Below, piece after piece: positions 413-57,414 of a stretch of 64,000 nucleotides of DNA. The DNA comes from Candidatus Dojkabacteria bacterium. Lineage in GTDB: Bacteria; Patescibacteriota; Dojkabacteria; JAFGLO01. The translations under genes and the position numbers were made by a program. The notes beneath the pieces were generated by a model. It saw only the letters and a program-made list of their open reading frames with translations, made no database searches and was not told the DNA's origin. The DNA lies in NCBI GenBank assembly GCA_016927995.1, contig JAFGLO010000015.1, forward strand, positions 3,847 to 67,846. The letters are read 5' to 3'. The stretch's first letter is position 1. Every line of letters starts with the position of its first letter.

Positions 413-1453
413 ATGTTTTGCGATGTACTCAGATATGATATATTGGACCAGGAAATAAGTTCAGTATATCAACTAGCCATGCATACAATCCCGACAGGTT
501 CCGCAAAGTCAGCATCTGCAAAAGTCTTGCCTATTGCGCCGGAGCCTCCATTAGAAAAGCTTATTCAAATGTCCTTGCCGCCCGATATTAAGGCCGATGC
601 AATGGCCGCTCAATAAGGATTTGAAATTAAATCTACAGGCGCTGCAGCTGTAGAGCTCGAAGATGCTGGTACGCAGTTAGTAGAAGCTCTTACTGGTGCA
701 ACAGAAACTGCCGCAGAAAACGTTGAAACAGATGTACAAAAGTCACGTAAAGGTATTTGGGAGTTTTGGGGTACAGCCATAGGTGAGAACTGGCGAAGGG
801 TTTTAAACGTCGAAGATACAACCTCCTTTAAAGATCATGCTAAGGGTCTGGCATTTGACCTTGTTGTTTGGGCAACGTCACTTGGGGTAGATGTTGCAGA
901 CCTTTCTGTACTTGTTAATGCAGTGGACTTAGCGATTCCCGGTGCTGGGACAGCCATTTCTGCTGGTATAGACATGGCCTCAAGTGCAGTTGTAGGTAAA
1001 GCCACCGATGTAATTTATTCAAAAATGAAAGAAAAGGAGCTTAGAGATCAAGGCATTTCAGAAGCAGAAATATCAGAGCGTAAGAAAGGGGGTGAATTTA
1101 AATATGTTAGTGATACTGCCAGTGCAATTGCGCTTGCGCTGGGTTGGATCCCTGGGCTTAAAGAGGTAATAAGTAAAACATCTGTACAGGCGACACTTAA
1201 TCTTATGAAACATTCAGCATTTACAGGTAGTACGTACGAAAGTGGGCTTGCTAGAGTCGAAGCATTTCTTGATGGGAAAACAGAGGCAGAGTTTAGAGCA
1301 TTTGCGGAAGCACTTGGTATTAACCTTGGGAAAGATAAAGAGACAACAAAAACAAGTGATCGGACAATGGTTTCCGGTATTATTGTTAAAACCCTGGCAT
1401 CGCTTTTTGCGACACAGCAGACTGTATCGACAGCTGCAACTGCTTCTTTCTAA
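413..1453 (+). pseudogene. P-family paralog (copy 1) interrupted by an in-frame TAA at 614-616. ORFs 413..616 and 617..1453 are in the same frame. The only in-frame start codon after the stop is GTG at 923.
   Basis: Same reading frame on both sides of the TAA, with no ATG/GTG/TTG between 617 and 923. The region upstream of 923 (..KGIWEFWGTAIGENWRRVLNVEDTTSFKDHAKGLAFDLVVWATSLGVDVADL) aligns by eye with P2 (1921..2694: ..KGLWDHAKEVARWLLNVDQGKTLPGTAVGVLRDLAVLGIFVGVDLVDAPL), so the similarity spans the stop-codon region. Confidence 0.35.
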
Positions 1454-1481
1454 CCTAACTAAGATAATTTAAATATCGCTA

Positions 1482-1793
1482 ATGGACATACAAGAACTAA
1501 TAAATCAAAGTGTGGTTATCGAGAGACCTGCCAAAAAATCGCTAATTAATCTTGCTAAACTTCTGCCGGAAAATAGTCTGGAGCCGCTTAAGAAAATCTT
1601 AGAAACGGGTCAGGAAAAAATTAGATCTCACATCGAAACTTATCTTTTGGCTGTGCACGAAGCATTTGCCGAATACAAGAGGACTGTTTTGCAAATAAAA
1701 GGGCTTAAGGTTTTTGAAAAGTCAGAAGTTATTAAAAACGTTAATGTAATTGAAAATGCGATGATTGATAAAATTCTTGAGACGTTAGTTTAG
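1482..1793 (+). CDS. Small helical protein, 103 aa (S-family, copy 1). Hypothetical.
   Basis: Complete ORF. It is clearly paralogous to 2725..3036: both are 103 aa, with ..LLPENSLEPLKKILETGQEKIRSHIETYLLAVHEAFAEYKRTVLQIKGL.. versus ..VLPEDIIQPITDILEDAQAKIDSKVEQYFLSVQASFSKYKAKILSIDGL.. Confidence 0.6.
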   Translation: MDIQELINQSVVIERPAKKSLINLAKLLPENSLEPLKKILETGQEKIRSHIETYLLAVHEAFAEYKRTVLQIKGLKVFEKSEVIKNVNVIENAMIDKILETLV

Positions 1794-1920
1794 TGACGTC
1801 TTCGATAGTTGACTTTAAAGGTACTTTCTAATATTCTTGAGTATTGGACATTGCATGGTTCCTGTGTTTCATGCTATAATACGCAATGTAATTAACTGCT
1901 AAATTTATACAATAACGAAA

Positions 1921-2694
1921 ATGACTACTAATTGGTCTGCAGGACTAGAAGTGAGAACCCTTTCGCAACGACCCGATGCATCAGTAGCGGCTCAAACAAG
2001 TACTGGTAATGTTTTTGTTGATGCTAATCCTTCTGCACAAGGGACTGTTGATGCTAGGCCAACCGCTCCACAAACTCAACCTCCGGCTCAATCTGAGCGA
2101 ACCGCTCAAGGTCAACCTCCTGTAATGGAAGCACAACAACCAGAAAGTTCACCAGAAGCACAGGATCTAGTAGACCAAGCAACAGCTGAGCTCCGTAGTG
2201 AATTAAATGGGGCTTCAGCAGAGGCTGCAGCTGCAATAGAGAGCGAAACTCAAGCTGCTCACAAGGGTCTTTGGGATCATGCAAAAGAGGTTGCAAGATG
2301 GCTTCTCAATGTTGATCAGGGCAAAACTCTTCCTGGTACGGCAGTTGGAGTTTTAAGGGATCTTGCTGTTTTGGGGATCTTCGTGGGAGTAGATCTGGTG
2401 GATGCACCTCTAATTGGGCATGGAGTGGAGGCTTTGTTTGGTGGATTAAATTCTGCGTTGGGTGCGCGTGAAGCTAAGTTCAAGGATCTAATTGATGCAT
2501 ATTTGAAGGGTAACGCAAATGCAATCAACGGAATTAAACACGAGTTTCAGGAAGTTGTACTGGATGTAGTTAAACAAAAATTAGGCATGGATCCTAAAGT
2601 ACCTATTGGTGAATCCTTTGGAGTAATAATTGGTAGAACGGTAAGAGACTTGTTTGGGAGAGTCATGGGTTCTACTGCACAAGCAGCCGCATAA
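1921..2694 (+). CDS. P-family protein copy 2, 257 aa. Pro/Gln/Ala-rich N-terminus followed by a hydrophobic C-terminal half. Hypothetical.
   Basis: ORF preceded by an extended -10 element (TGcTATAAT, 1872-1880). It shares the KG(L/I)W..LNV..hydrophobic GVD(L/V)(V/A)D segment with copy 1. Confidence 0.6.
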   Translation: MTTNWSAGLEVRTLSQRPDASVAAQTSTGNVFVDANPSAQGTVDARPTAPQTQPPAQSERTAQGQPPVMEAQQPESSPEAQDLVDQATAELRSELNGASAEAAAAIESETQAAHKGLWDHAKEVARWLLNVDQGKTLPGTAVGVLRDLAVLGIFVGVDLVDAPLIGHGVEALFGGLNSALGAREAKFKDLIDAYLKGNANAINGIKHEFQEVVLDVVKQKLGMDPKVPIGESFGVIIGRTVRDLFGRVMGSTAQAAA

Positions 2695-2724
2695 TTTGTC
2701 TATACTTAAGTTTAAACTGCCAAA

Positions 2725-3036
2725 ATGAACATGCAAAACGTCATAACAAAAAGTACAGTTATAAGTCCTTCTGTCAAGGAAGCTCTTAATAACCTTTCAG
2801 TGGTATTGCCAGAGGATATCATTCAGCCAATTACTGATATTTTAGAGGATGCACAGGCAAAAATAGATTCAAAGGTTGAACAATATTTTTTGTCTGTACA
2901 AGCCTCTTTTAGTAAATATAAAGCTAAGATTCTTTCAATTGACGGACTTTCATTGAGATTAAAGGCACAGATAGTGTCCAACGTGAACACTATCGAAACC
3001 GCTATTATGGAAAATATAATTAAATCTTTAAGTTAA
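2725..3036 (+). CDS. Small helical protein, 103 aa (S-family, copy 2). Hypothetical.
   Basis: Paralog of 1482..1793. It lies 30 nt after P2 and 13 nt before the 1098-aa protein. Confidence 0.6.
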   Translation: MNMQNVITKSTVISPSVKEALNNLSVVLPEDIIQPITDILEDAQAKIDSKVEQYFLSVQASFSKYKAKILSIDGLSLRLKAQIVSNVNTIETAIMENIIKSLS

Positions 3037-3049
3037 TAATAAATAGAGC

Positions 3050-6000
3050 ATGGCAGTAAATCCAATTAGGGGTCCGGTACCACAATTTTTGGGTGGACCT
3101 CGTGGGGTAATGAATGAAGTCAATGCTGTTGTTCAACGACCTGCTGAGAATGTTTTTCGCTGGATTGACGAGAACCTTAGGCCCGTTAGAGTAATAGGTC
3201 GGCTTGCACAACGAATAGGCAATGCTTTCGATGCAGTTGATAATGTCGCACGTGGAGTTAGACCAGGTGTTGGTAATGTTGTTGATCAGCTCGACGCCCT
3301 TCGTGGAAATGTAGCCCAAGCCGCTGCAAACGTAGTCGATAAGGTGCCTTTGGTTGGGCATAGACTTAGCCAAAATATAGAGGAGCATCACGTTATTGCA
3401 GGCAAAGAAGTAGAAAACCTAGATAGAAGGTTTTATAAAAAGACAAGGGGAAAATCACTTGAGCAAATCGTTGATGCGCAGCTTCACTATAATGCAAAGC
3501 GTGCAGAGTATGAAGATATTGCAAATCAGCCTACGGTTCCTGGTGCACCAAATCTTGTAGAGCAATGGGCCGCCGGGCGTACAGCAGACATTGATTTGCA
3601 TGGGCGGGAAGAGCTTGCTCAAATAGATCCATCAGATACTGCCGCCATTGACAAAAAGCGAAAAGAAATTGCCGCAAGACTTATGGCAGACGAAGATATG
3701 CGAGGTGCAGTTTTGGCTGGAAATGTTATGGACAGAAATTCTTCAAAAGCGGTTCTTGATGCAAAATATGGTAGGGCTAACGCAGACCAAATGGTCAAAA
3801 TTATAGAAAAGAGTGCAAATGCAATGACTCCTACATATGGAGAAGTTCGCGGAGAAAAGAGATTAACCCAAGTTGATACACTGTCTACAGACGATCCGAG
3901 GCTTGGCGTAAGACTTGATATTGCTTCGGACATTGTAAAGAAAAACGCCCTAGATGCTGCCAGTAAAGAGTTTGGTAGAAGAATTGCCGATCCGATTTTG
4001 GAAGGTCAAAAGGTTGATAGGCAGATTGGATTTTTCCGGGATGGTAAGGCTAGGGATTTTGTAGCTGATCTTAGGGCCGGGCTTAGTAAACCTCCTACGG
4101 CTGACGAAATCAAAAGACTTGAAAAGGCTTTAAATAAAAGCCCATTTAACCAAAGAGTTGATATTGACGATAGACTTGCAACACCAGGATCAAGAGTTGG
4201 GCCTGCGGCCAGAGCGCTTGATGTTATCTGGCGAGAAATTTATACGTACGAAGGACTAAGAAATATTGATCTTAGTAAGCCCAAAGATAGAAATGACTTC
4301 AGAAAGACAGTTCTATGCAATATTTATGGTTTAGATACAGATTTAGATCCCAAGGTTAGGGATATGCAGAAGGTTACTGCAGAAGCCAAGAAAATTGCCG
4401 ATGCTAATAACCCCGCTGACAAAGCCAATGCCATAAGTGCGCTTATGGCTAACACGCATATTTCAGAAAATATGAAGTTTGCAATTCTTTTTGATGCTGC
4501 CGTAACAAAGGGTAAAAACATAAATGGAACGCAGAACATTGAACAAATAATTGCATTTATGGATGGGAAGACAATGCCAGAAGTTATGCAAGATCTTGCT
4601 AACGCACTAGGCGTTGCCGATTTAAATAGCACTGCGCCAGGAATTAATAACATGGTTGATTATGTGTTTAATATGCTTCCCGATGTGCAATTACTCGTGG
4701 AAACTCCAGATGGTGATCTTAACCAAGCAATGTGTGAAGCCTTTATGAAGATGCAGCTTCTCGTTGATATGGACAAATTTATGGTAATGAAGGCAGATGG
4801 TTCCGGATGGGAATTTGCGGTTGATGCTAACGGAATTGCTTATTGTCCTCCAAACCTGCAGCCAGCTGTTTTCAAGTACATGGAAATGCTAGGTAAGGAC
4901 AGAAATATGGGCAATGGATTCCTTAAGGCTGTTGGTGAATGGGCAATTGCAAACGCTGGAGGCGCTATGGGTGTCACAATCGATCAGTTACCTGATCGAT
5001 TCTTTAACACACAGGCACAAAACAAGCGTGAAACTCCAAAAACGTTGCGTGATCTTGAAAAGAATCCTCAACTTGCCGATGCCCTTCGTGAACTTGGGCT
5101 TACTCCTGCCGAACAAGCTCGAATCATTAAAGAGAACGAAACAAGCTTGCTTGGACGTTTAATTAGTGGTAGCAAAGAGGCATTTCAAAAATTGGTTCGC
5201 GGTGGTGCATTTGCACTTGCTACAGCCGCAGTAATGACAACCATTGGAGCTACATTAGGAGCTCCGGTCGCTACTGGGCTTGCCGTAGTTATGGGTATTT
5301 ACGCGGCGTTTAACGTATTACGAGGTGGTTCGGATACAATCGTTGGATTTGTAAGATCAGGTGCGGAACTACTTAACGCATGGATTCATGGCGAAGATAA
5401 AGATAGACTTGCCGAAAAGCAGCAAAGATTTAAAGTTGCACTAAAGCGACTTGGTGCATTTGCACTTGGAGCTGCCGGTGGTGCTGCAATGGTTGTTGGT
5501 TTTGGAAATTTTGCGGGCGTAATTGCGTCATTATTAATGATTCCTGCCGAAAAGGTATCAGAGGTTACCAGGCTTATGGAAAACAAATCTAGAGTCAAGA
5601 AATTAATGCAAGAGATTGCCGATGGTACTATTGCTGGCCTTTCCGAAGAAGAAAAAGCTGCCAGGAGAGCCGAATTCAGAAAATGGATTGAAAAGGAAGA
5701 TAGGGCTAAGAATTTCTGGACCGCACTCGTATCCGGTGTCGTAACTGGTGCTGCGGCCGCAGGCTTATGGGTTCCTAAGCAGTATCAAAATCTTGGAGGT
5801 AAGGCTATTCAAAGAATTCGCGCAAGTAGAATGACTGGTCCTACTGGTATTATTGGTGGACCTGGTCCAAGCGTTACTCCACCCGCTGGTCCCCAAACTC
5901 CACCTGCTGGCGGAACTGTTACGGGTGACATTATCGTTGAGCAGGGTGGTAATCATGGAACCAGACTTGTTCCATTTGAGGCAGATGCTAATGGATATAA

Positions 6001-6346
6001 GGTAACGTTGGGTCAAGGAGATAGTGCGGGCGTAGGATTTAAAGCACTTTTTGAGGCACGTAAGGGTGCTGATATCCCGGATTTATGGCCAGATCTGGCG
6101 GCCCAGGGCAATCCGTTTGCACAGTTTGTGGCAAAACACTTGTATAATCCTACAGGTGCTGTTATACAGAGGAATGTATTCATAGACTTCCTTCGTAACA
6201 GAGGGGTAGCCGACCCTGTGGCGTTTATTAATGGAATTGATCAAAAGACGCTGGATGTTTTGTTGCGTACTCCTGGTACTGGTAGGGTAGTTGCAGGAGA
6301 TGTACTAAAGTTGACCAATGAACAAGCACGCGTGCTTTTTGACTAA
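3050..6346 (+). CDS. Large protein, 1098 aa (P3). It has a long helical N-terminal region, about 4-5 predicted TM helices near aa 720-880, a Pro-rich linker (PTGIIGGPGPSVTPPAGPQTPPAGG) and a distinct ~150-aa C-terminal domain. Hypothetical; candidate effector/toxin-like protein.
   Basis: Long uninterrupted ORF. The hydrophobic stretches are visible in the translation (GGAFALATAAVMTTIGATLGAPVATGLAVVMGIYAAF.., LGAFALGAAGGAAMVVGFGNFAGVIASLLMI.., NFWTALVSGVVTGAAAAGLWV). The Pro-rich linker precedes the terminal domain. Confidence 0.7.
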   Translation: MAVNPIRGPVPQFLGGPRGVMNEVNAVVQRPAENVFRWIDENLRPVRVIGRLAQRIGNAFDAVDNVARGVRPGVGNVVDQLDALRGNVAQAAANVVDKVPLVGHRLSQNIEEHHVIAGKEVENLDRRFYKKTRGKSLEQIVDAQLHYNAKRAEYEDIANQPTVPGAPNLVEQWAAGRTADIDLHGREELAQIDPSDTAAIDKKRKEIAARLMADEDMRGAVLAGNVMDRNSSKAVLDAKYGRANADQMVKIIEKSANAMTPTYGEVRGEKRLTQVDTLSTDDPRLGVRLDIASDIVKKNALDAASKEFGRRIADPILEGQKVDRQIGFFRDGKARDFVADLRAGLSKPPTADEIKRLEKALNKSPFNQRVDIDDRLATPGSRVGPAARALDVIWREIYTYEGLRNIDLSKPKDRNDFRKTVLCNIYGLDTDLDPKVRDMQKVTAEAKKIADANNPADKANAISALMANTHISENMKFAILFDAAVTKGKNINGTQNIEQIIAFMDGKTMPEVMQDLANALGVADLNSTAPGINNMVDYVFNMLPDVQLLVETPDGDLNQAMCEAFMKMQLLVDMDKFMVMKADGSGWEFAVDANGIAYCPPNLQPAVFKYMEMLGKDRNMGNGFLKAVGEWAIANAGGAMGVTIDQLPDRFFNTQAQNKRETPKTLRDLEKNPQLADALRELGLTPAEQARIIKENETSLLGRLISGSKEAFQKLVRGGAFALATAAVMTTIGATLGAPVATGLAVVMGIYAAFNVLRGGSDTIVGFVRSGAELLNAWIHGEDKDRLAEKQQRFKVALKRLGAFALGAAGGAAMVVGFGNFAGVIASLLMIPAEKVSEVTRLMENKSRVKKLMQEIADGTIAGLSEEEKAARRAEFRKWIEKEDRAKNFWTALVSGVVTGAAAAGLWVPKQYQNLGGKAIQRIRASRMTGPTGIIGGPGPSVTPPAGPQTPPAGGTVTGDIIVEQGGNHGTRLVPFEADANGYKVTLGQGDSAGVGFKALFEARKGADIPDLWPDLAAQGNPFAQFVAKHLYNPTGAVIQRNVFIDFLRNRGVADPVAFINGIDQKTLDVLLRTPGTGRVVAGDVLKLTNEQARVLFD

Positions 6347-6375
6347 TACGAATCTAAATTAACTGCCCACTAAAA

Positions 6376-6810
6376 ATGGACTTAAACGACTATAGTAGTA
6401 AGTTGCAGGCTCTTACCGGCGTTGCAATGACCGACGAAGAAAAGGAATCAATTACGGCGCTTGCCAAAACTGTTGTTCCCATGCAAACAGATACCGACAG
6501 ATTAGAGATTTTATTAAAGGAAAAGGGTTTAAACGCTGAAGAGGTAGAAGCAATTATCGAGCAAGCAAAGGCACTTTTAGGCCTTTGGCTTTTGCGATAC
6601 ATTTTCGACAATACTACAGAGGACGAGCGCAAAAATATTGAAATTGCTGCCGAAAGTCTCTCTCCAACCCAAACCAACGAACTAATGGATGTTTTAATGG
6701 AAAAAAAGATAGGTAAGTCAATGGCTGATTTGTCCGACGAGTTGTGGGCGCAGGTAGTTGACGCCTTTGTTGAAGATATCGAGACAATCATAAATGACAG
6801 TAAGAGGTAG
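6376..6810 (+). CDS. Small acidic protein, 144 aa. Hypothetical; candidate immunity/chaperone partner of the upstream large protein.
   Basis: ORF 29 nt downstream of P3. It is strongly acidic (many D/E) and helical. Confidence 0.55.
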   Translation: MDLNDYSSKLQALTGVAMTDEEKESITALAKTVVPMQTDTDRLEILLKEKGLNAEEVEAIIEQAKALLGLWLLRYIFDNTTEDERKNIEIAAESLSPTQTNELMDVLMEKKIGKSMADLSDELWAQVVDAFVEDIETIINDSKR

Positions 6811-6916: not shown

Positions 6917-7231
6917 ATGAAAATTTGGCAACAAATAGTAACATATCTGACTGAAATTGATCCCAGCGGTTCAATTACCGCAACAGATACTAAGTCCGTG
7001 GTAACTTTGATCGTGAACATAAGTATCGGGGTTGGCGGGGGAATCGCGACTTTACTTATTATCATCGGCGGTATCCAAATGCTTGGCAGCGGCGGTGATC
7101 CGGGCAAGGTTAAAGAAGGCCAGGAAATGATTGTAAACGCATTAATGGGTTTGGCTCTTATTTTACTTGCTGTAATGGTTGTTCGAACTTTAGGATTTGA
7201 TGTACTTCGTATCCCGGGCTTTACCATGTAG
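6917..7231 (+). CDS. TrbC/VirB2-like type IV secretion pilin-like membrane protein
   Basis: Contains ..GGGIATLLIIIGGIQMLGSGGDPGKVKEGQEMIVNALMGLALILLAV.. The same hydrophobic-SxGDPxK(x)xEAQ-hydrophobic architecture is seen in the paralogs at 55910 and 56252. Assignment to the VirB2/TrbC family is by motif resemblance, not by database search. Confidence 0.5.
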   Translation: MKIWQQIVTYLTEIDPSGSITATDTKSVVTLIVNISIGVGGGIATLLIIIGGIQMLGSGGDPGKVKEGQEMIVNALMGLALILLAVMVVRTLGFDVLRIPGFTM

Positions 7232-21693: not shown

Positions 21694-22378
21694 ATTTTAC
21701 TGGAATTTTCATTAATTGAACGGTTATTGTTATCTTACGTTTGTCTTTCATTACTATCTGTACACTGGTATCTTCGTAGCCATTGGATCTAAAAGTAAGT
21801 GTGTGTCCTCCTGCACTAAGCTCCCCTGTGAAGATTGGTGTCTCGCCAAGTGTAATTCCGTCTATTATTGTAAGTGTATTTGACGAATTGGAAAACACAA
21901 AAAGACTAAGATTGGAGTAGGGTTCCTCGAGATATTTTAAGACTTCAGTGACTTCTTCCGTTGGTCCCAGCTTTATATTTACTGTAAGCGCCGACTTGTT
22001 GGGCATATCAATGGTTTCGTTGTGTATTGCATAAAACTCGGAATATTCACCTGTCTTTTTAATTTGGATTTTGTGTGTTCCGCAGACGACTTTGTATGTT
22101 GCAAGTGGGGTTGTTCCAATTTCTTCGTCGTCAAGAAGAACAAGCCCGATTCCGTTTGAGATATTTACCGAAATACTACAGTTCTTTTGCTCACTAACAT
22201 AGGGGATAAGCCCAATAATTGATCTAAAGTCTATTTTGTATGCAATAAAGGTTATCAAGATTACGGCAATTACCAGAATTAGCGGAGCAATAAATTTTAT
22301 GGATGAATACTTTTTGTTGCCCGGTCCGCGATCGATCTCTTTTACTTTTCTTTTGTAAAGCTGTTTAAGGTTACTCAT
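21677..22378 (-). CDS. PEGA-domain membrane protein (start at internal ATG giving MSNLKQLYKRK.., preferred over the ORF-track start at 22498)
   Basis: N-terminal TM (FIAPLILVIAVILITFIAY) followed by two beta-sandwich PEGA-like repeats (..TYKVVCGTHKIQIKKTGEYSEFYAIHNE..VNIKL; ..GGHTLTFRSNGYEDTSVQIVM..ITVQL). Confidence 0.5.
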   Translation of the reverse strand: MSNLKQLYKRKVKEIDRGPGNKKYSSIKFIAPLILVIAVILITFIAYKIDFRSIIGLIPYVSEQKNCSISVNISNGIGLVLLDDEEIGTTPLATYKVVCGTHKIQIKKTGEYSEFYAIHNETIDMPNKSALTVNIKLGPTEEVTEVLKYLEEPYSNLSLFVFSNSSNTLTIIDGITLGETPIFTGELSAGGHTLTFRSNGYEDTSVQIVMKDKRKITITVQLMKIPVKYERTE

Positions 22379-22518
22379 GGCAGTAGTGGTATATAAGTAT
22401 TTTATTATACAGCAAAAGATTCTTCTTATGTAGATATGGGTATAGACTTTCCTTGCATAAGAATACGAACATAATGGCGATTTGATATAATATCTCATTA
22501 TACTTATATCTTATTGGC

Positions 22519-25343: not shown

Positions 25344-26103
25344 GGTGATCTTTATTTACGGACCAAGCCTTACCGGTAAAACTACACTTGCCGTGAAAAT
25401 CGCAAAGTATCTCTTTGGGAAATATGATATAGATTCGACACTTGTTTCGGCCGACTCTCGAAAAGTGTATAAAAACATGAATGTTGTGCAGTCATACATT
25501 TTCCCGTCGGTCAAAGAAAAAATAGATGTACATTTGGTTGAATTTTGTGACCTTTCAGAGGAGTTTACGCTTGACATGTTTCTTGTGTCCGCCCGAGAGA
25601 TAATTAAAAGTGCGCATGCTTCAGGTAAATTGCCAATTGTTTTTGGTGGAAACGGTATATACATTAAGGCACTTATTGAGGGGTGGGTTACATCCGAAAC
25701 GTTAAGTGAACGAACAAAGCAAACTCCGGAGTTTGAATCGATACTATTTTCTCCCGTGTTTCAAAAGGAATCTTTACTAAAGCGAATGGATGGTTGGGCT
25801 AAGCACCTCGTAAAAAACGGATTGATAGAAGAGTACGAAAAGTTAATCAAAACCTGTGCTAGAAATGGATTTTGCGCCTTACGAACAACATTGGGATATA
25901 AGCAGGTAGATGAGGTTAAAAATCGATTTAGAACAATTGACAAGGTTAAATTTGTAAAATATCTAGCTAAAGAGCTTAGGCTTTTCGTGAAGAAGCAGAT
26001 TAAGTTTTATGCAAACTTGCCTGACTTCGCGGAAATCACCCTGGATAATTATAAGGACGTCATAGATCTTCTTTTCCAGTCGAAACGAACGAAAGTACCT
26101 TAA
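25336..26103 (+). CDS. miaA: tRNA dimethylallyltransferase (MiaA-like)
   Basis: IFIYGPSLTGKTTLAVKIAK..LVSADSRKVYKNMNV..GKLPIVFGGNGIYIKALIEGW..LGYKQ aligns with the MiaA P-loop and DMAPP-binding regions. Confidence 0.7.
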   Translation: MNKVIFIYGPSLTGKTTLAVKIAKYLFGKYDIDSTLVSADSRKVYKNMNVVQSYIFPSVKEKIDVHLVEFCDLSEEFTLDMFLVSAREIIKSAHASGKLPIVFGGNGIYIKALIEGWVTSETLSERTKQTPEFESILFSPVFQKESLLKRMDGWAKHLVKNGLIEEYEKLIKTCARNGFCALRTTLGYKQVDEVKNRFRTIDKVKFVKYLAKELRLFVKKQIKFYANLPDFAEITLDNYKDVIDLLFQSKRTKVP

Positions 26104-26896
26104 GACGGGTGTTTCGTGGGTATGTTTCAATAACGTGGTTATTATAAAAATATAGACTTTTGTGATGTTTTGCGAAGCTTTTTTGCTGAATATATTTCGC
26201 AATGGGTTCAAGGACCCATATTGCAGGAAGCAAAGGAAGTGTAAAAAGGTTTCTGAAAAGTTCCCCTAAAGAAGTTTTTCTGGAGCTGTTGCCTATTGTC
26301 AATTTGCCGTAAATAAAGTCTTCAAGCCAACTGTTCGAAGAAATCAGGTCTTGATAAGTATTCTTTCCGTAAAGTGGTGTAATTGACAAAAGCTGAAATG
26401 CTGAAAATATGTCTTTGTTTCTTAGTACTAGGTTGTTATCAGCCAAATAGGTATTTATACAAAGCAGGTTGTTTTCCTTTCCCTTGGGTGTTGTTGAGAC
26501 ACGTCTTACTCTTAAGAATCGATAGATTAGGTGATCCAATATCCGTGTCAGCCAGAGTGCTTTTGGATCTGTAATAATAATTACGTCGATGTCATCATCC
26601 GGAGCAGGTGTTTTTGCGGCAACCGACCCCGAAAGTGCAATCATTTTTACAAAAGGAAATAGCCAGAGTAAAAACAGGAGTCGTTTTGCAATTTTAACTT
26701 TTGTTTTTGTAAGTTCAGGTAAATTCGACGGCAGGGTAGTTTCATTTAAAACTATATACCCATTAATAAGTTTATGAGTTTTAGGAATGGCGGATTTGGG
26801 GGCATTAATTAGTTTTACAAACGAGTAGGATAATGGTTTTTTGAAGTACTCGGAGATTCTAAGGTAACGGGTAAGTAAGTTTTTGTGTATGCTCAT
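26060..26896 (-). CDS. Nucleotidyltransferase-fold protein (hypothetical)
   Basis: ..IALSGSVAAKTPAPDDDIDVIIITDP.. is a Pol-beta-type NTase signature (GS..D.D). The start was chosen at MSIHKNLL (26896) rather than the ORF-track 26980. Confidence 0.45.
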   Translation of the reverse strand: MSIHKNLLTRYLRISEYFKKPLSYSFVKLINAPKSAIPKTHKLINGYIVLNETTLPSNLPELTKTKVKIAKRLLFLLWLFPFVKMIALSGSVAAKTPAPDDDIDVIIITDPKALWLTRILDHLIYRFLRVRRVSTTPKGKENNLLCINTYLADNNLVLRNKDIFSAFQLLSITPLYGKNTYQDLISSNSWLEDFIYGKLTIGNSSRKTSLGELFRNLFTLPLLPAIWVLEPIAKYIQQKSFAKHHKSLYFYNNHVIETYPRNTRLKVLSFVSTGKEDL

Positions 26897-26950
26897 TTTC
26901 TTTGAAAGTCCTCTATGATATACTGAAATCATAACATAAATAAGGCGTAA

Positions 26951-27775
26951 GTGGCACAAAAACAACACGTTATCCCTCATAACATAGTGGATGTAGATTT
27001 TAAGCTGTTTGGGGTAATGAACCTTAAACAGTTTATATATGTTGCAATTGGCGGTGTTTTAACATATATAACATTTTTGATGGTAAAAGAAGGCTCGATT
27101 CCTGCAATAATTGGCTGGCCTGCCATGGTAGTATTTGTTGTGTTTGGGCTTTCATTTGGGTTACTTCCGGTTAGGGGTAGGTCACTTGATCAGTGGGTCT
27201 TAAGCTATATTGCAGCTGTTCGTAGTCCTACTAAACGTGCCTGGATGAAAAAAGGTATAACACCTGCCGCAATTCCTTCGACAATTCCTATTGAGCAGTT
27301 AAAACCTATGCAGGTAAAACTTGGTACCCAGTCGACTGTTGGTCAAATAATCGGCGGACTGCACATCCCAACTCCTGAGGTTGACGTAAAACAGGTAAGC
27401 TTGCTTAAAGAGCCTGATTCAACCCAGTCCGTATCAATTAAAGAAGGTAGGCAGACATTGCTTTCACCAATGCATGGAACTTCCGGCACAGAAGCACAAC
27501 CCGCACAGCCGATTGTGGAACCTGGTGCAGCTCAACGTTCCGCACCAACAATAATGCAGCCCCAAGAAGAATATCAGCAAGCAAGATATGAAATGATGAG
27601 TTCGTTGCCAGCCGAACAGATACAACCTCAAAAAGTGCAGCCCCAGCAAATTCAACCGACTCAGATACAGCAACCCGGACAGATACCACTTGAGCAGATA
27701 CCCACGGATCAATCACAGCAACCTAAGCAAGGAGAATTAACTCAACAACCATATTCAACGGTAAATCCAACTTAA
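26951..27775 (+). CDS. PrgI/VirB3-like two-TM membrane protein with a Q/P-rich C-terminal tail (T4SS-associated, hypothetical)
   Basis: GTG start. It has two adjacent TM helices (FIYVAIGGVLTYITFLMV; IIGWPAMVVFVVFGLSFGLL) and then a low-complexity QPQ-rich tail. It sits upstream of the VirB4 genes, as PrgI-like genes do in Gram-positive T4SS loci. Confidence 0.4.
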   Translation: MAQKQHVIPHNIVDVDFKLFGVMNLKQFIYVAIGGVLTYITFLMVKEGSIPAIIGWPAMVVFVVFGLSFGLLPVRGRSLDQWVLSYIAAVRSPTKRAWMKKGITPAAIPSTIPIEQLKPMQVKLGTQSTVGQIIGGLHIPTPEVDVKQVSLLKEPDSTQSVSIKEGRQTLLSPMHGTSGTEAQPAQPIVEPGAAQRSAPTIMQPQEEYQQARYEMMSSLPAEQIQPQKVQPQQIQPTQIQQPGQIPLEQIPTDQSQQPKQGELTQQPYSTVNPT

Positions 27776-27790
27776 TTATTTTAAACTGCC

Positions 27791-28267
27791 ATGACGGAAG
27801 TGGAACTGCAGCAACTAACTGCGCAGAACCAAAACTTAATAGACGAAAATGCAAGGCTTAGAAAAACCATAGATGAGCTTAATCTTAAAGTCCAGGAATT
27901 AAGTTCTAAGCTTGGTGTTGGGAAAGAACAACCTGTCCAGTCCGACAGAATCACTATAAATCCACAAACAGTAAAGGATTATAGGATTGATATTATGGGA
28001 GTTGTTCCTCGTGAAAATACTGTAAATTTTGTTGTTAAGGACAGGGAAGGGCTTTTAGTTCCAGACGTTGTATGTATAATAAAAGACTCTTCGGGGCGAC
28101 CAACAAGGGCCGCCAAAAGTAACCAATTGGGGCAAGTTTTATTTACAAGCCCAATGCCAACCGGAAATTATACACTTGAGCTTACCAAGTCGGGATATGC
28201 ATTTCCCTTGTGTGAACTCGAATTAAATGGTAGAGTGCTTGGTTCATTTGAGATTAGGGCTATATAA
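27791..28267 (+). CDS. Coiled-coil / beta-sandwich (CarboxypepD_reg-like) hypothetical protein
   Basis: N-terminal heptad-like region (ELQQLTAQNQNLIDENARLRKTIDELNLKVQEL), followed by ..TGNYTLELTKSGYAFPL.. Confidence 0.45.
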   Translation: MTEVELQQLTAQNQNLIDENARLRKTIDELNLKVQELSSKLGVGKEQPVQSDRITINPQTVKDYRIDIMGVVPRENTVNFVVKDREGLLVPDVVCIIKDSSGRPTRAAKSNQLGQVLFTSPMPTGNYTLELTKSGYAFPLCELELNGRVLGSFEIRAI

Positions 28268-28891
28268 ATGGCACAATCTGTAAATCCAAATAAACAACCG
28301 ATTTTCGATTCAACGCAGGATCATCTTGATATCGTTGAAGTGATAGACGATATGTTACTGCTTCGAGGAAATAAAGTTGCGGTTGTGATTCAAACAACGG
28401 CAGTAAACTTTGATCTTTTGTCAGACGAAGAGCAAGATTCCAGAATTATGGCTTTTGCAAGCCTCTTAAACTCGGTAACATATCCGTTGCAAATTGTTGT
28501 GAGGACAAAGAAGGTTGATATATCAAACTATCTTACTTACCTTAGAAACTACTTGACCCAACCAATGTCGGAAGGTCGAAGAACCCAAATGCAAATATAT
28601 TTAAACTTTATCCAAAACCTAATAGTAAAAAACGAAATCTTAGACAAGCAGTTTTATGTTGTTGTATCATATTCAACCGTGCAGCTTGGAAACGTTAATC
28701 CATTAAAGCTTCTAAAACGAGATAAACAACCCGCACCGACAATTGCAAACGATCTTTTAATAGAGCAGGCCAAAGCGAATTTATATCCTAAGCGAGATCA
28801 TATAATTCGCCAACTTATTAATATGGGAGTTAAGGGATATCAACTAACGGGTGATCAACTAAAGGACGTTTTTTATAATATCTATAATTAA
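28268..28891 (+). CDS. VirB4/TrsE/TcpF-type conjugative ATPase, N-terminal fragment (split gene)
   Basis: ..DIVEVIDDMLLLRGNKVAVVIQTTAVNFDLLSDEEQDSRIMAFASLLNSVTYPLQIVVRTKKV.. matches the N-terminal region of Gram-positive VirB4-like ATPases (I..I.D....G..Y......IN(F/Y)..LSDEE.......S.LLNS). It ends 2 nt before the next ORF, in a different frame. Confidence 0.55.
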   Translation: MAQSVNPNKQPIFDSTQDHLDIVEVIDDMLLLRGNKVAVVIQTTAVNFDLLSDEEQDSRIMAFASLLNSVTYPLQIVVRTKKVDISNYLTYLRNYLTQPMSEGRRTQMQIYLNFIQNLIVKNEILDKQFYVVVSYSTVQLGNVNPLKLLKRDKQPAPTIANDLLIEQAKANLYPKRDHIIRQLINMGVKGYQLTGDQLKDVFYNIYN

Positions 28892-28893
28892 AA

Positions 28894-30993
28894 ATGAGCA
28901 ATCCTATTATTGAAGGAATAAGAAAGGTCTTATTCGGGAAAAAGGCACAAAATACCCAAGGGCAACAACCTGTTCAATACACGCAATCGCAAGGCGTGCA
29001 GATGCAGCCGGTACCGCCAATGCAACCTTCCACCCAAGCAGTTATACAACCACAACCGGGTCAGGTTATACAACCACAACCGGATCAGGTAATACAACCA
29101 CAGCCGGGTCAGGTAATACAACCGCCAGAAGGAACTCCTGTAATTACACAAGTGACTCAGGATATGCAACTTGCTCAGGCTCAGGCTAATGAACAGATAG
29201 GCATTAGGGATATATTGGCACCAAGCTACATAGAGGTCGATTTTAATTATATTCAGGTTGGAAGAAAATACTTTAGAACCCTTTTTATATCGAAATATCC
29301 GCGCGTAGTTAGAATCAACTGGCTTTCTCCATTAATAAATTTCGATAGCTCCCTTATTATTAGTACACACTATTATCCACTTGATATTAAAGATGTACTT
29401 GCTAGACTCAAAAAGAAAATGGGTGAGCTGGAGGCAACTTTAATGGTTCAGGTTGAGAAGGGAAAGGTTATCGATCCTACGGCAAAGGTTGCATTAAAAG
29501 ATGCACAAAGCTTACAAGATGCAATTGCATCGGGTGCGGAAAAGCTATTTCAGTTTGGGCTTTACGTAACAGTTGAGGCAAATTCTACGGAAGAACTAAA
29601 TAAAGTCACGAAAGATGTTGTCTCCACAATATCTGCACTTGATATGCAAGCCGACCCGACAACACTTCAAATGGAGCAGGGGTTGCAGTCGTCCATTCCA
29701 TCCGGTGTAGACAAACTTTTTTACAACCGAAATCTTGATACAACATCAATTGCAACAACGTTTCCGTTTATTACGTCTGAACTTACAATGGATCATGGAA
29801 TTTTATATGGAGTTAACCTGCATAACAAAAGTCTCGTTGTCTTTGATAGGTTTGATTTAGAGAATGCTAATTCCACGGTTTTTGCAAGATCGGGTGCAGG
29901 TAAAAGTTATTTCGTAAAACTGGAGATTTTTAGAAGTCTAATGCTTGGAACCGAAGTTATTATTATTGATCCGGAAAAGGAGTATGAAAGCTTGGCAAAA
30001 TCACTCGATGGATTATATATTACTTTTTCCCAGGATGAAGGTTATAAAGTAAATCCGTTTGAACTTCCCGGCGCGTTAATCGAAGAGGGTGTTGATCAGC
30101 TTCGTGAAAAAATTCTCTCTCTTCAGCGATTTTTTAATATTATGTTTGGCGGAACCAGTAATTTGGAAAAGGCTATCCTTGATAGAGCAATGATGCTTAC
30201 TTACAATGAAAAAGGAATAACAGTCGAACCCTCAACTCAGAGTAATCCTGCACCGCTTTTGGAGGATCTCTATAAAGTACTTAAAGGGTTTACTGAAGAA
30301 GATGCACAAAGCCTGGCAAAGCGAATGGAGCGATTTATAATTGGTAGCGCAGCAGGAATATTTAATGAGCGGACAAATCTATCATTAGACAATCCATTTA
30401 CCGTGTTTTCAATTCGTGATCTATCGGAAGAATTAAGACCGTTAGCAATGTATCAAATGCTTGATTTTATCTGGACTAATATACGAAAAATCCGCAAAAA
30501 AAGAATTTTGGTTGTAGAGGAGGCCTGGTATATGATGCAACGTCCCGATTCGGCCGAATTTATGTATTCTATTGCAAAACGTGCTCGAAAGTACTATCTT
30601 GGGCTCACTACAATAAGTCAAGATGTCGACGACTTTTTATCTACTGATTATGGAAAAGCCGTAGTAAACAACAGTGCCATGCAGATTCTCTTGAAGCAAA
30701 GTTCCTCTGCAATTGACCGAATCCAGTTTGTGTTTAAGCTTACCGAGGGAGAGCGATCATTTCTTTTAAGATGCGGAATAGGTGAAGGACTATTCTTTGC
30801 AGGGAATAATCATGTGGCAATTAAAAGCGTTTCAAGTCTTGCCGAGCACAGACTTATGACAACCAATCCACAGGAAATGGATTTTTATAAACAGGTTGGA
30901 CTAATGGATGATACAGATTCCGAAAAACTCTCAAAGGTGTTTACACCGACCTTAGTTGAATCCTTATACGGAAATAAAAATGGGAATATTTGA
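28894..30993 (+). CDS. VirB4/TrbE-family type IV secretion ATPase (main body), with an N-terminal Q/P-rich repeat insert
   Basis: ..VDFNYIQVGRKYFRTLFISKYPRVVRINWLSPLINFDSSLIISTHYYPLD.., Walker A FARSGAGKSYFVK and Walker B RILVVEEAWYMM are all present. Confidence 0.8.
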   Translation: MSNPIIEGIRKVLFGKKAQNTQGQQPVQYTQSQGVQMQPVPPMQPSTQAVIQPQPGQVIQPQPDQVIQPQPGQVIQPPEGTPVITQVTQDMQLAQAQANEQIGIRDILAPSYIEVDFNYIQVGRKYFRTLFISKYPRVVRINWLSPLINFDSSLIISTHYYPLDIKDVLARLKKKMGELEATLMVQVEKGKVIDPTAKVALKDAQSLQDAIASGAEKLFQFGLYVTVEANSTEELNKVTKDVVSTISALDMQADPTTLQMEQGLQSSIPSGVDKLFYNRNLDTTSIATTFPFITSELTMDHGILYGVNLHNKSLVVFDRFDLENANSTVFARSGAGKSYFVKLEIFRSLMLGTEVIIIDPEKEYESLAKSLDGLYITFSQDEGYKVNPFELPGALIEEGVDQLREKILSLQRFFNIMFGGTSNLEKAILDRAMMLTYNEKGITVEPSTQSNPAPLLEDLYKVLKGFTEEDAQSLAKRMERFIIGSAAGIFNERTNLSLDNPFTVFSIRDLSEELRPLAMYQMLDFIWTNIRKIRKKRILVVEEAWYMMQRPDSAEFMYSIAKRARKYYLGLTTISQDVDDFLSTDYGKAVVNNSAMQILLKQSSSAIDRIQFVFKLTEGERSFLLRCGIGEGLFFAGNNHVAIKSVSSLAEHRLMTTNPQEMDFYKQVGLMDDTDSEKLSKVFTPTLVESLYGNKNGNI
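29041..29124 (+). repeat. 24-bp tandem repeat, about 3.4 copies, encoding VIQPQPGQ units
   Basis: gttatacaaccacaaccgggtcag, gttatacaaccacaaccggatcag, gtaatacaaccacagccgggtcag, then a partial copy. Confidence 0.9.
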
Positions 30994-31303
30994 TTCGATC
31001 AAGCGATTATTAGGAATAGGGAAAACTCCTGTACAAGATGGTCTCTCACAAACTATTCCGGAATTTAAATATTCACGTCGATCAGGCGAAGTCGTTGGTT
31101 CGGGTAGCCCTACGGTTCCCCAAAATGGTTGTGCGAATCAATCACCGAGGCTTCCTATAGATGATCCTGCATTAGCACTACTAAAAGCCAACGAGCTTGT
31201 TAAAGGCGGAAAAGAGTTGATATCTTCGCGCGAGGTTAACGTTAAAACAAGCGACTCCGGCGCCACAGCCAAGCTCCCGCAAAACCCGTTTAAGGGGGTA
31301 TAA
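30980..31303 (+). CDS. Hypothetical small protein
   Basis: ORF overlapping the VirB4 stop. Low-complexity sequence with weak support. Confidence 0.25.
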   Translation: MGIFDSIKRLLGIGKTPVQDGLSQTIPEFKYSRRSGEVVGSGSPTVPQNGCANQSPRLPIDDPALALLKANELVKGGKELISSREVNVKTSDSGATAKLPQNPFKGV

Positions 31304-39015: not shown

Positions 39016-39042
39016 ATGCGTTAGAATAAAGAGTAATTTTAT

Positions 39043-40356: not shown

Positions 40357-40374
40357 TTTATATAGCCAATTGTA

Positions 40375-41136: not shown

Positions 41137-41225
41137 TTATATTTTAGTGGTGTTTGATTGTCAACAACTTAATAAGTATAATCGGTGCGTGTTACAAAGG
41201 TTATAACTTTGGGTTTTTTAAAAAA

Positions 41226-42326: not shown

Positions 42327-42730
42327 CTCTAAACAGTCGAGTTAGAACAATTATCTTCTATATTTTCATGGTTTGTGGGGTTACTGCATTGGGACTTATT
42401 ATTTATGTCAAAGCTTTGCATAAAGAGTCAAATGTTAAAGGAAAAACTGTTTCGAAAACAAATCCGGTGGAGGCTAACGTTACAATGGTTGGGGGAAATT
42501 GTTTTTTGGCATATTGGGAAACAGAAGAAGAGTCAATTGGATACGTAAAATATGGATCTTCCCCCGATACTATTAATCTTGTCGGGAAAAACAAAGAGGG
42601 GTTTATTTACTCAACCCGTCACGAAATTAAAGTTTGTGACCTTACCGAGCCTGAATATTACGTTATTATCGTCTCCGACGGGGTCCCTTATGGGCTTAAT
42701 GGGGTACCAATTAAGGTTCAACGAGAGTAG
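42323..42730 (+). CDS. Hypothetical membrane-anchored protein (135 aa)
   Basis: The ORF overlaps the dnaJ stop. N-terminal TM ([20 protein letters not shown]). Confidence 0.4.
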
Positions 42731-43013
42731 GGACAGGTCTAGACCGACACCCCTTTTGCAAACGACTAGCTGGTGGTGCTTTCCGAGAAGTAGTGTGCGG
42801 GTGTGTGCATAGTCGAATTAAAATTGCAGGTAGCCCTTGAATGTAAGGGTTGGAGTCAGATTGTTACAATAAATAGCCTTAGAATGTCTCCACAACTTAT
42901 TATACTTGCGGATTATTGGGGATAATACGTTAAATCCTAGACCATCACAAGGGCATACGTAAACGATGATGCACACAGTGATACAACGGGCCATGTCGGT
43001 CTAGACCTGTCCC
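42730..43013. repeat. 20-bp perfect inverted repeat (GGGACAGGTCTAGACCGACA / TGTCGGTCTAGACCTGTCCC) enclosing ~244 nt of non-coding sequence between convergent genes
   Basis: Left arm 42730-42749 and right arm 42994-43013 are exact reverse complements. Each arm contains the palindrome GGTCTAGACC. Confidence 0.9.
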
Positions 43014-55909: not shown

Positions 55910-56242
55910 ATGCTTGATATCGATAAAATAATAATGCAAGCTGCGCCTGGTACATCTTCCGCATCGGGGGTATCAACTCCCTCGGGTGTTCCACAAACAC
56001 TTGCCGAGCTTGTTCAACGTGCATTGACTCCCATTTTTGCAGTTGCGGGGGTTGTACTTTTGGGGCTTTTTATTTACGGTGGATATACCTGGCTTATGAG
56101 TGCAGGTGATCCAGGTAAACTTAAAGAAGCTCAGGGAATTATTGTTAACGCTATTATCGGTATTGCAATTGTAATGAGTGCGGCACTTTTAACTAGAGTT
56201 GTGGGGCATCTTTTGGGTTATGAAGGTATGGGTATATTTTAA
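55910..56242 (+). CDS. TrbC/VirB2-like type IV secretion pilin-like membrane protein (paralog 2)
   Basis: ..FAVAGVVLLGLFIYGGYTWLMSAGDPGKLKEAQGIIVNAIIGIAIVMSAALL.. has the same architecture as 6917..7231. Confidence 0.5.
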   Translation: MLDIDKIIMQAAPGTSSASGVSTPSGVPQTLAELVQRALTPIFAVAGVVLLGLFIYGGYTWLMSAGDPGKLKEAQGIIVNAIIGIAIVMSAALLTRVVGHLLGYEGMGIF

Positions 56243-56251: not shown

Positions 56252-56587
56252 ATGCTTCTTGTAATGGATAATTTATCAAAGGTTATCAGTACAATAGGGA
56301 AAATTACTGTTGACCAAGGAATTACGGATCCCAACGAATTTGTTAGAAAAGCAATAACAATCGCTGTTTCCGTAGCAGGTATAGTAGCTTTGGTTTACGT
56401 GGTTTTAGGTGGGTATAAATTTTTGATTTCTTCGGGTGATTCAAATAAATACCAGGAGGCTATTCAAACAATAATGTATGCTGTAGTTGGGCTTGTTGTT
56501 GTTGCAATGAGTGGGCTTGTTATAAATTATGTCGGAAAAGTTTTAGGCTTAAAGAATCTCTTTGATTTAAGCTCTCTTCTAAACTAA
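56252..56587 (+). CDS. TrbC/VirB2-like type IV secretion pilin-like membrane protein (paralog 3)
   Basis: ..VAGIVALVYVVLGGYKFLISSGDSNKYQEAIQTIMYAVVGLVVVAMSGLV.. Confidence 0.5.
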   Translation: MLLVMDNLSKVISTIGKITVDQGITDPNEFVRKAITIAVSVAGIVALVYVVLGGYKFLISSGDSNKYQEAIQTIMYAVVGLVVVAMSGLVINYVGKVLGLKNLFDLSSLLN

Positions 56588-56946: not shown

Positions 56947-57414
56947 TTGGATCCTACGGTTACTCCCACAGTTGTTCCTGTTTCAGAAATCGGACAGGTA
57001 TCCTCAGTTCGTCCCGTTGAATTCGTTGATCTCGACCAACAGTTCAAACCAGAAGGTCCTGTAGTGTTTGACCAAGAAGCTCCACAGGCCAAAGCTATTA
57101 AAGCAGAACTTGATCAGCTTAAACAACCATCTCCGGATATAGTGGAACCAATTAAGGACAATCGCCAAACGGATCAAGGAGTTCAGGCAATGGCCCAGAC
57201 GGATCCAAACACACCGGCAGGAGCTCAACCGGTTGTTAGTCCGGCCCAACAAATCTTTGAAGCTGCAATAAAAAATGCTCCTGGGTATCAGTTGTCAGAT
57301 AATGTCATAAGCGCTGCCGATAGGTTCGCACAAGGTCCGGCTCAAGAGGCTGCAACAGCGGCGGGTCTTAAGGCAGGGTCAATTTGGCTTCGCACCCTCA
57401 AGCTTGCCGCCTAA
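56947..57414 (+). CDS. Hypothetical Pro/Gln/Ala-rich protein (TTG start)
   Basis: The ORF is present, but the sequence is low-complexity and the start is uncertain. Confidence 0.3.
   Translation: MDPTVTPTVVPVSEIGQVSSVRPVEFVDLDQQFKPEGPVVFDQEAPQAKAIKAELDQLKQPSPDIVEPIKDNRQTDQGVQAMAQTDPNTPAGAQPVVSPAQQIFEAAIKNAPGYQLSDNVISAADRFAQGPAQEAATAAGLKAGSIWLRTLKLAA

Follow-up and report, generated by a model that had tools for sequence, protein, structure and literature searches.

The window analyzed here is a 64,000-nucleotide stretch of a Candidatus Dojkabacteria genome (contig JAFGLO010000015.1, positions 3,847 to 67,846), and our analysis indicates that this chromosome very probably carries the Patescibacteria type IV secretion system (T4SS), a vertical descendant of monoderm MPF-FATA conjugation machinery whose relaxase has been lost. 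An earlier reading made from the sequence alone (the sequence-only reading) had proposed a chromosomally domesticated, Gram-positive-type T4SS in a reduced genome. This proposal agrees with the MPF-FATA affiliation of VirB4, with a gene order that recurs in related lineages, and with the conclusion already published for the phylum (PMC12102498, PMC10633639, PMC12857230). The genes are those of the relaxase-free, pilin-bearing T4SS that has already been described in Patescibacteria, and the window is a typical Dojkabacteria instance of it, not a new system.

In Southlakia epibionticum, Wang et al. (2023, Cell, PMC10633639) described an unusual Gram-positive-like T4SS that lacks a recognizable relaxase and whose array of predicted pilins is essential. 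The T4SS and the pilin array are needed for epibiotic growth, and the authors suggested protein export or another role. In the survey of Patescibacteria genomes by Quinonero-Coronel et al. (2025, Microb Genom, PMC12102498), 2,417 of 3,035 contained VirB4, which formed a monophyletic group nested in MPF-FATA and was recorded for Dojkabacteria assemblies in the survey table. The same work found TrsD homologues (n = 2,272), mostly beside virB4, as the commonest VirB4 partner in the phylum, and PrgI/VirB3 to be widespread across it. PF18895/VirB2 pilins occurred in 1,948 genomes, including 441 arrays of 2-11 divergent copies, and only 148 of 5,713 coupling ATPases were located near virB4 (PMC12102498).

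The virB4 cluster and its chromosomal address

The core of the system is located at 26951-31303, where five co-directional genes are tightly packed. It was compared with five other Dojkabacteria lineages: L001, L002 (CP129478), L021 (WS6 GWF2_39_15), L022, and L023. The virB4 gene (28894..30993, + strand) encodes a 699-aa ATPase of the MPF-FATA type with Pfam matches to P-loop_TraG (E 2.6e-27) and CagE_TrbE_VirB (E 4e-8). The protein scores 368.7 bits against the NCBIfam model conju_CD1110 (cutoff 325, model positions 181-736 of 752) and matches the Thermoanaerobacter VirB4 in the PDB (4AG5, E 3e-47). Its Walker A (ARSGAGKS) and Walker B (VVEEAW) motifs are both intact, and by homology it appears closest to the VirB4 of monoderm MPF-FATA systems. 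At the Walker B position (30517-30534), the window, L001, and L022 have VVEEAW, and L002, L021, and L023 have VDEAW; one subclade has fixed this D-to-E change. The N-terminal extension of VirB4 contains IQPQPGQV octapeptides that are encoded by a 24-nt tandem repeat (29044-29123, 3.3 copies). Q/P-rich disordered stretches were also observed in the tail of PrgI and in the 155-aa partner of the coupling ATPase, both described below.

Immediately upstream of virB4 is a gene for a 207-aa TrsD/TraC-like protein (28268..28891, + strand). The protein matches the NCBIfam model TrsD with an E of 9e-8, which is below the curated cutoff, and it aligns to positions 125-236 of the 894 positions of VirB4_plasma (Mbov_0397; E 8e-7) and to positions 13-124 of the 792 positions of VirB4_CagE. 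VirB4 of the window aligns to this last model only from position 237. An AlphaFold2 model of the TrsD-like protein, built from 31 homologues, reached a mean confidence (pLDDT) of 75.8. When it was compared with the PDB by Foldseek, the best 14 matches were all TrwK/VirB4 chains of R388 (best E 4e-3, probability 1.0, TM-score 0.40-0.46). The family carries a precomputed Pfam assignment, PF26593 TraC-like, and the protein had no match in our local Pfam copy. An hhalign comparison of the family profile with VirB4 of the window produced no signal (probability 0.05%), and sequence and profile searches of the PDB found nothing. The TrsD homology draws only on the NCBIfam models and the fold search. 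Together, these identify the protein as homologous to the N-terminal subdomain of a canonical VirB4. The protein is 100% identical to JW962_03610, a hypothetical protein [Candidatus Dojkabacteria bacterium], and every named member among its 251 homologues comes from Dojkabacteria/WS6.

The two genes had been called a split VirB4 in the sequence-only reading. By homology, the 207-aa and 699-aa proteins are the TrsD and VirB4 pair, an arrangement already known from Gram-positive systems of the pGO1 type and from Patescibacteria.

The first gene of the cluster (26951..27775, + strand) encodes a PrgI/VirB3-like membrane protein that scores 30.6 bits against PF12666 (cutoff 27). A two-transmembrane hairpin at aa 27-71 is followed by a Q/P-rich disordered tail, in line with the two-transmembrane PrgI/VirB3-like protein that had been recognized from the sequence. 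Each of L001, L002, L021, L022, and L023 has an orthologue at this position. Between prgI and the TrsD-like gene is a gene for a 158-aa cytoplasmic protein (27791..28267, + strand) whose N-terminal part is a coiled coil and which has a beta-sandwich resembling CarboxypepD_reg, for which the Pfam match is weak (E 5.6e-4). Neither a transmembrane segment nor a signal peptide was predicted in it, and a PDB search returned no match. Only the window, L001, and L022 encode this protein in a separate open reading frame (ORF). In L002, L021, and L023, PrgI is 293-335 aa long. Because the C-terminus of this long PrgI aligns with the 158-aa protein, the latter appears to be the detached C-terminal domain of a long-form PrgI.

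Directly after VirB4, the ATG at 30980 opens a gene for a small, basic, disordered protein (30980..31303, + strand; 107 aa, isoelectric point 9.5) that matched no family in Pfam or NCBIfam. It is conserved at its termini only (MGIFD... and ...NPFKGV). Counterparts of 79-102 aa follow VirB4 in L002, L021, L022, and L023, and in L001 there is only a tblastn match at 12039-12263 (E 2e-6). The 96-aa protein of L002, the one relative for which the termini were compared, shares LGIFN... and ...NPFRGA with it. We considered whether the 115-aa ORF that follows VirB4 might be spurious and rejected this view, given that an ORF or matching sequence follows VirB4 in five of five relatives and that the termini are conserved in L002.

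The PrgI-TrsD-VirB4 core, with or without the 160-aa protein between PrgI and TrsD, recurs in all five of the other lineages. The full order lepA-recF-NTP_transf-PrgI-(160 aa)-TrsD-VirB4-small ORF is found in L021, L022, and L023. In L002 the part from NTP_transf to the small ORF is present and lepA-recF is missing, and L001 retains PrgI-160 aa-TrsD-VirB4 only, with neither lepA-recF nor NTP_transf. Downstream of the core cluster, dnaK-grpE-hrcA-GT4 follows in the subclade of the window. The NTP_transf_2 gene itself (26060..26980, - strand; Pfam E 1.7e-4) encodes a protein with a nucleotidyltransferase fold and is divergent from prgI. Its homologues hold the same divergent position in L002, L021, L022, and L023 at 26-35% identity. 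The gene is a conserved neighbor of the T4SS cluster and may or may not belong to the system. VirB4 identity to the relatives (58-77%) parallels DnaK identity (72-75%), and the VirB4 homologues in this range come from Dojkabacteria or from metagenome contigs that share this synteny. Among GTDB species representatives, VirB4 recovered a single one, a Ca. Dojkabacteria metagenome-assembled genome (MAG; 71% identity).

The wider surroundings are those of a bacterial chromosome. In the ~55 main ORFs that the window contains, Pfam identified groEL, rpoB/C, rpsL/G, rpoD, lepA, recF, dnaK-grpE-hrcA, and dnaJ, together with holA, ruvX, ftsK, rodZ, trx, folD, glyA, and rpsT. The T4SS genes are interspersed with groEL, rpoBC, lepA, recF, dnaK-grpE-hrcA, ftsK, folD, glyA, and rpsT, so that the earlier picture of T4SS genes scattered among core genes, and not clustered in an integrative element, is borne out by their housekeeping neighbors. 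Pfam scans of the same ORFs revealed no relaxase, integrase, or recombinase, as the sequence-only reading had stated for the window, and no integrase or att context was found around the genes there. ARAGORN detected no tRNA in the window, Rfam gave no match in it at the gathering threshold, and there is no GC island, the GC content being even at 0.36-0.44 throughout. Since housekeeping synteny recurs, VirB4 and DnaK diverge in parallel, and mobile-element markers are absent, the core cluster appears to be inherited vertically at a largely stable chromosomal address and is not part of an integrative and conjugative element (ICE).

Pilins and coupling ATPase

Three genes for VirB2-like pilins are located 20-25 kb away from virB4. 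Pilin 1 (6917..7231, + strand, 104 aa) scores 36.8 bits against PF18895, and pilin 2 (55910..56242, + strand) and pilin 3 (56252..56587, + strand), which form a tandem pair, score 44 and 43.9 bits. The gathering cutoff is 26.6 bits, and all three pilins that had been picked out from the sequence thus belong to PF18895 rather than to an unrelated family. They are 30-48% identical among themselves (pilin 3 versus pilin 2, 34%, E 1e-14), and each is predicted to form a hydrophobic two-helix hairpin. In NCBIfam they match a single family, the pilin-like Mbov_0395 (E 9e-6 to 3e-3, below cutoff). Scanning the six-frame translation with a pilin hidden Markov model (HMM) revealed no fourth pilin in the window. 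Pilin 1 was also called as a 104-aa T4SS_pilin gene in an independent assembly, L024.

Each pilin had been credited with its own strong and partly near-leaderless promoter, which stands for part of the set. A near-consensus promoter was found only at pilin 1, where TTGAAA-17-TATAAT ends at 6910 and leaves 6 nt to the ATG (6917), a spacing that is compatible with a leaderless mRNA. Pilin 2 is preceded by an extended -10 element (TGcTATAAT, 55867-55875). For pilin 3 there is no + strand promoter match upstream, and because it also starts only 9 nt past the pilin 2 stop, it is probably cotranscribed with pilin 2. In CP129478, five pilin genes are located 4 kb from virB4. The dispersal of the pilins in the window is therefore a rearrangement within the class and not a principle of its organization. 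On the same CP129478 contig (L002 1-4737), the five-pilin array is followed by a SpoIID-like gene.

The VirD4/TraG-type coupling ATPase (type IV coupling protein, T4CP; 57476..59935, + strand, 819 aa) passes the Pfam cutoffs for T4SS-DNA_transf (25.5 bits, cutoff 20.1), TraG-D_C (26.8, cutoff 22), and DUF87 (29.9, cutoff 23.2). It has a single N-terminal transmembrane segment (aa 36-54), an N-domain of ~300 aa, and a P-loop domain in which GKTGVGKS is the Walker A motif and YVDEF the Walker B motif. These features agree with the coupling ATPase that had been proposed from the sequence. A match to DotL (4e-4) is below the cutoff, and ~300 aa of the N-domain matched no characterized family. Full-length homologues at 51-81% identity were found in 12 metagenome loci, and no relaxase was present in the T4CP neighborhoods of these loci. 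More distant T4CP-like genes (L016-L018 and L020, 38-40% identity) carry PF26449 DUF8128.

Neighborhoods of the T4CP vary among the 12 relatives, and one upstream partner recurs. In five of six aligned relatives, the gene before the T4CP encodes a protein that is of low complexity at its N-terminus and has the motif VYGY...SAKTWL..L.GRL at its C-terminus. In the window this position is held by a gene for an acidic, mostly disordered 155-aa protein (56947..57414, + strand) with no family match, in which the counterpart of the motif reads PGYQLSDNV...GSIWLRTLKL. The 155-aa protein belongs, as a diverged member, to a conserved family of T4CP-upstream partners. On a number of Dojkabacteria-like contigs (L004, L005, L007, and L009-L012), a further block precedes the T4CP. 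Its full order, SpoIID-like - about 205 aa - DUF5657 - single-transmembrane protein of about 750 aa (754) - SmpB, is seen in L004 and L007, and truncated or varied versions are found elsewhere. The SpoIID/DUF5657/754-aa/SmpB block is not present in the window. SpoIID may provide a peptidoglycan-opening (VirB1-like) function.

Relation to known systems and likely role

The closest counterpart is the T4SS of Patescibacteria such as Southlakia ML1 (SEML1_0006-0019; PMC10633639, PMC12102498). In both, TrsD and PrgI come before a VirB4 of the MPF-FATA type, there are several divergent PF18895 pilins, the T4CP is located away from virB4, there is no relaxase, and the genes are chromosomal, among core genes of a reduced, host-dependent genome. 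The differences are of arrangement and inventory. The pilins of Southlakia are inside the cluster, whereas those of the window are distant from it; the C-terminal domain of PrgI is a separate ORF in the window; the cluster neighbors lepA-recF and dnaK, compared to dnaA-dnaN in the Southlakia-type system; and no VirB6 or peptidoglycan hydrolase was recognized in the window, whereas VirB6 is present and essential in Southlakia.

The kinship with MPF-FATA conjugative systems is evident in the VirB4, which passes the CD1110 (CTn2) equivalog cutoff, and in the T4CP, which is related to CD1115. The TrsD and VirB4 pair resembles pGO1 Trs, and PrgI resembles that of pCF10 Prg. Unlike these conjugative systems, the genes of the window are not on a mobile element and come with no relaxase, origin-of-transfer (oriT) context, or PrgB-type adhesin. 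VirB2-like pilins also set the system apart from Gram-positive systems, which lack them (PMC12102498, PMC12857230). A Mycoplasma ICE offers another parallel, in that the pilins match the Mbov_0395 family and both TrsD and VirB4 match the Mbov_0397 model, all below cutoffs; Mycoplasma is likewise a wall-poor, monoderm, reduced-genome lineage with a pilin-like protein beside VirB4. The Mycoplasma Mbov_0395 and Mbov_0397 genes are located on a mobile ICE with a DDE recombinase. Finally, the rvh T4SS of Rickettsiales shares dispersed chromosomal islands, multiple divergent VirB2 paralogues, and a reduced, host-dependent genome with the system described here, and it serves host interaction, not conjugation (cited in PMC12102498). 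Unlike the window system, rvh is a diderm MPF-T machine with VirB7, VirB9, VirB10, and several VirB6 paralogues, and the two are phylogenetically unrelated.

Several observations weigh against the identification of these genes as a complete, pilus-forming Patescibacteria T4SS. No VirB6-, VirB8-, or VirB1-like gene was recognized in the 64 kb, and no ORF of the window matched TrbL/VirB6 or PrgH, which leaves the channel part unaccounted for. Within the window, at least four hydrophobic segments are found only in a 1098-aa orphan protein and in a 422-aa protein encoded after an extracytoplasmic function (ECF) sigma factor gene. A VirB6-like gene may be located outside the window, or may be too diverged for detection. 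For the T4CP, the NCBIfam matches to SXT_TraD (4e-15) and CD1115 (2e-11) are below their cutoffs, and since the T4CP is non-essential in Southlakia (PMC12102498), that of the window may not work with the machine. It is solely through pilin homology that a pilus is predicted. Structure prediction had been proposed along with the sequence-only reading. In its AlphaFold2 model, pilin 2 folds into a hairpin of two helices (H31-63 and H68-101, each with a pLDDT of about 80), and the Foldseek comparison with the PDB gave no significant match to solved pilins, only generic helical hairpins, with the Aeropyrum conjugation pilin 8dfu ranking third (E 3.4). Because the fold search was not significant, membership in the pilin family rests on PF18895. 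In addition, the absence of a relaxase applies to these 64 kb only, not to the whole genome.

A mechanism can be outlined from established T4SS biology. PrgI/VirB3 would anchor a VirB4 hexamer at the cytoplasmic membrane, and the TrsD/TraC-like protein would supply the N-terminal VirB4 subdomain that is missing from the 699-aa VirB4. ATP hydrolysis by VirB4 would then drive the extraction and polymerization of VirB2-like pilins into a pilus or conduit reaching the host bacterium, and the three divergent pilins could offer mixed or alternative surfaces for the pilus. The T4CP, encoded apart from the rest, would recruit substrate together with its conserved disordered partner, and the machine as a whole may let the cell exchange protein or other macromolecules with its host on contact while it grows as an epibiont. 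A requirement for epibiotic growth is known for Saccharibacteria only (PMC10633639), and tubular structures at the host interface have been seen in one other cultivated lineage (preprint 10.64898/2026.06.21.733656). Function is still unestablished, with effector delivery and the uptake of host macromolecules as current proposals (2025 FEMS review, PMC12857230; 2024 PNAS perspective, PMC11665869). Since there is no relaxase in the window and almost none across the phylum, contact-dependent exchange with the host is more likely than conjugation, and we consider it the most likely use of the machine.

The opposite view, that these genes are scattered remains or modules of an ICE or plasmid that still serves DNA conjugation or did so recently, draws on the homology of VirB4, T4CP, PrgI, and TrsD to conjugation proteins and on the usual tie of T4CPs to DNA substrates. 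We consider it highly improbable and already largely refuted. No relaxase, integrase, recombinase, or tRNA was found in the 64 kb, the GC content is uniform, the same housekeeping neighborhood recurs in three to four of the five other Dojkabacteria lineages, the divergence of the core cluster matches that of DnaK, and relaxases occur in just 103 of 3,035 Patescibacteria genomes (PMC12102498). A more serious contender is that the machine imports DNA, RNA, or other macromolecules of the host, as the ComB system of H. pylori or the archaeal Ced system might suggest, and thereby feeds a genome that is unable to make nucleotides. Uptake has been put forward as a candidate role in reviews (PMC11665869), and in a preprint of 2026 (10.64898/2026.06.21.733656) feeding on host RNA is connected with tubular structures at the interface with the host and with a monophyletic clade of VirB4. 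VirB4 and the T4CP also show weak NCBIfam matches to the DNA-import ATPases CedB and CedD. However, the CedB match amounts to 38.9 bits against a cutoff of 700 and the CedD match to 30.3 against 600, both are weaker than the matches to conjugative VirB4 families, and no CedA or other Ced- or ComB-specific component was found. The direction of transport is not readable from sequence, which does not by itself tell effector export from the import of host material. An importer seems to us somewhat unlikely.

A different question is whether the T4CP belongs to the VirB4/pilin machine at all, or is an exapted, stand-alone ATPase of the FtsK/HerA type with another role. The distance from virB4 (26 kb), neighbors that are not conserved in the 12 relatives save for the one upstream partner, and the ~300 aa of the N-domain that lack a characterized family match would fit such an exaptation, which has also been considered for the non-essential T4CP of Southlakia (PMC12102498). 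On the other hand, the protein passes the Pfam thresholds for T4SS-DNA_transf and TraG-D_C, and its gene is located 0.9 kb downstream of the pilin pair in the window, with a pilin gene about 7 kb upstream in L004 and L007. A T4CP-like gene also flanks the counterpart of an orphan gene island (see below) in L016, L018, and L020. We regard a stand-alone role of the T4CP as doubtful, to about the same degree as import.

The orphan island and other genes of the window

Between groEL and pilin 1 is an island of orphan genes (480..6810, + strand) without Pfam matches. It encodes two pairs, each made up of a Gly-rich protein and, after it, a 103-aa protein (40% identity between the two 103-aa members), and then a 1098-aa protein (3050-6346, + strand) with no family match and no Sec signal, and its acidic 144-aa partner (6376-6810, + strand; isoelectric point 4.3). 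Word-indexed searches with the 1098-aa and 144-aa proteins returned self-matches only, and a PDB search with the 1098-aa protein family found nothing. An exhaustive HMMER search of 1.84 billion cluster representatives revealed four remote relatives of the 1098-aa protein, the sole named one from Dojkabacteria. Its alignment with them shows a shared central module with 4-5 Gly/Ala-rich hydrophobic helices. The pair diverges rapidly: at a VirB4 identity of 74% and a DnaK identity of 73%, the 1098-aa protein is 25% identical and the 144-aa partner 39%. A pilin-like hairpin in the 1098-aa protein, suggested by BLAST (E 0.02), was rejected after hhalign (probability 0.9%) and a six-frame scan with the pilin HMM.

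A pair of ~1000-aa and ~145-aa proteins is conserved only in a few metagenome and MAG contigs, L016-L020, of which the named one is from Dojkabacteria, in each case <10 kb from a T4CP-like gene or VirB4. Together with the window, the pair is found near T4SS genes in three arrangements, beside pilin 1 (window), beside a divergent T4CP-like gene (L016, L018, and L020), and beside VirB4 (L019). This recurring proximity suggests that the pair is linked to the T4SS, and within the island it is the strongest candidate for a T4SS component. The large protein could then be an effector or other substrate that is translocated, with the small one as its chaperone or immunity protein, or it could be the missing channel subunit, a highly divergent protein of the extended VirB6-like kind; we consider such membership in the T4SS unlikely on present evidence. 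The first gene of the island (480-1453) is interrupted by an in-frame TAA at 615-617, after which ~100 codons are open without ATG, GTG, or TTG until 923. The same in-frame interruption is present in the independent Logan assembly L024, where the gene was called as 67 aa and 176 aa. It may be a pseudogene, or reflect readthrough or an unusual start.

The window also encodes DUF4012 and PEGA proteins, a sortase, and large surface proteins, which are associated with Candidate Phyla Radiation (CPR) genomes. The DUF4012 protein (967 aa) and the PEGA-domain protein are encoded as a pair at 18790-22498 (- strand) that is conserved in L019 and L022, and in L019 this pair adjoins the ~1000-aa and 145-aa pair. 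A surface-protein neighborhood (36520-45275) contains the sortase (40375-41136, - strand), a solute-binding protein, an 831-aa protein with a weak PKD match, and a 747-aa protein with a weak match to the Gram-positive-pilin domain Cna-B. The 831-aa and 747-aa proteins have hydrophobic segments at their N- and C-terminal ends and no LPXTG motif. At 59972-64000, the ECF sigma factor gene overlaps that of the 422-aa protein (about five transmembrane segments, a coiled coil, and a C-terminal domain), which may be an anti-sigma factor. It is followed by a gene for a 1772-aa alpha-2-macroglobulin-like protein that runs past the end of the window and is complete in L025.

The Patescibacteria T4SS is the only T4SS shown to be essential to its carrier bacterium and the only monoderm system with VirB2-like pilins (PMC10633639, PMC12857230, PMC11665869). 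About 2,400 genomes with this system are already on record, and the window brings no new principle to it. It adds lineage-specific details, namely a fixed lepA-recF/dnaK address, a PrgI whose C-terminal domain is detached, the conserved small ORF that follows VirB4, the conserved disordered partner upstream of the T4CP, and a candidate cargo or channel gene pair. Of these, the orphan island is the sole element that might lead somewhere new. If its membership in the T4SS were true, the island would be the first concrete handle on what the essential T4SS of Patescibacteria does.

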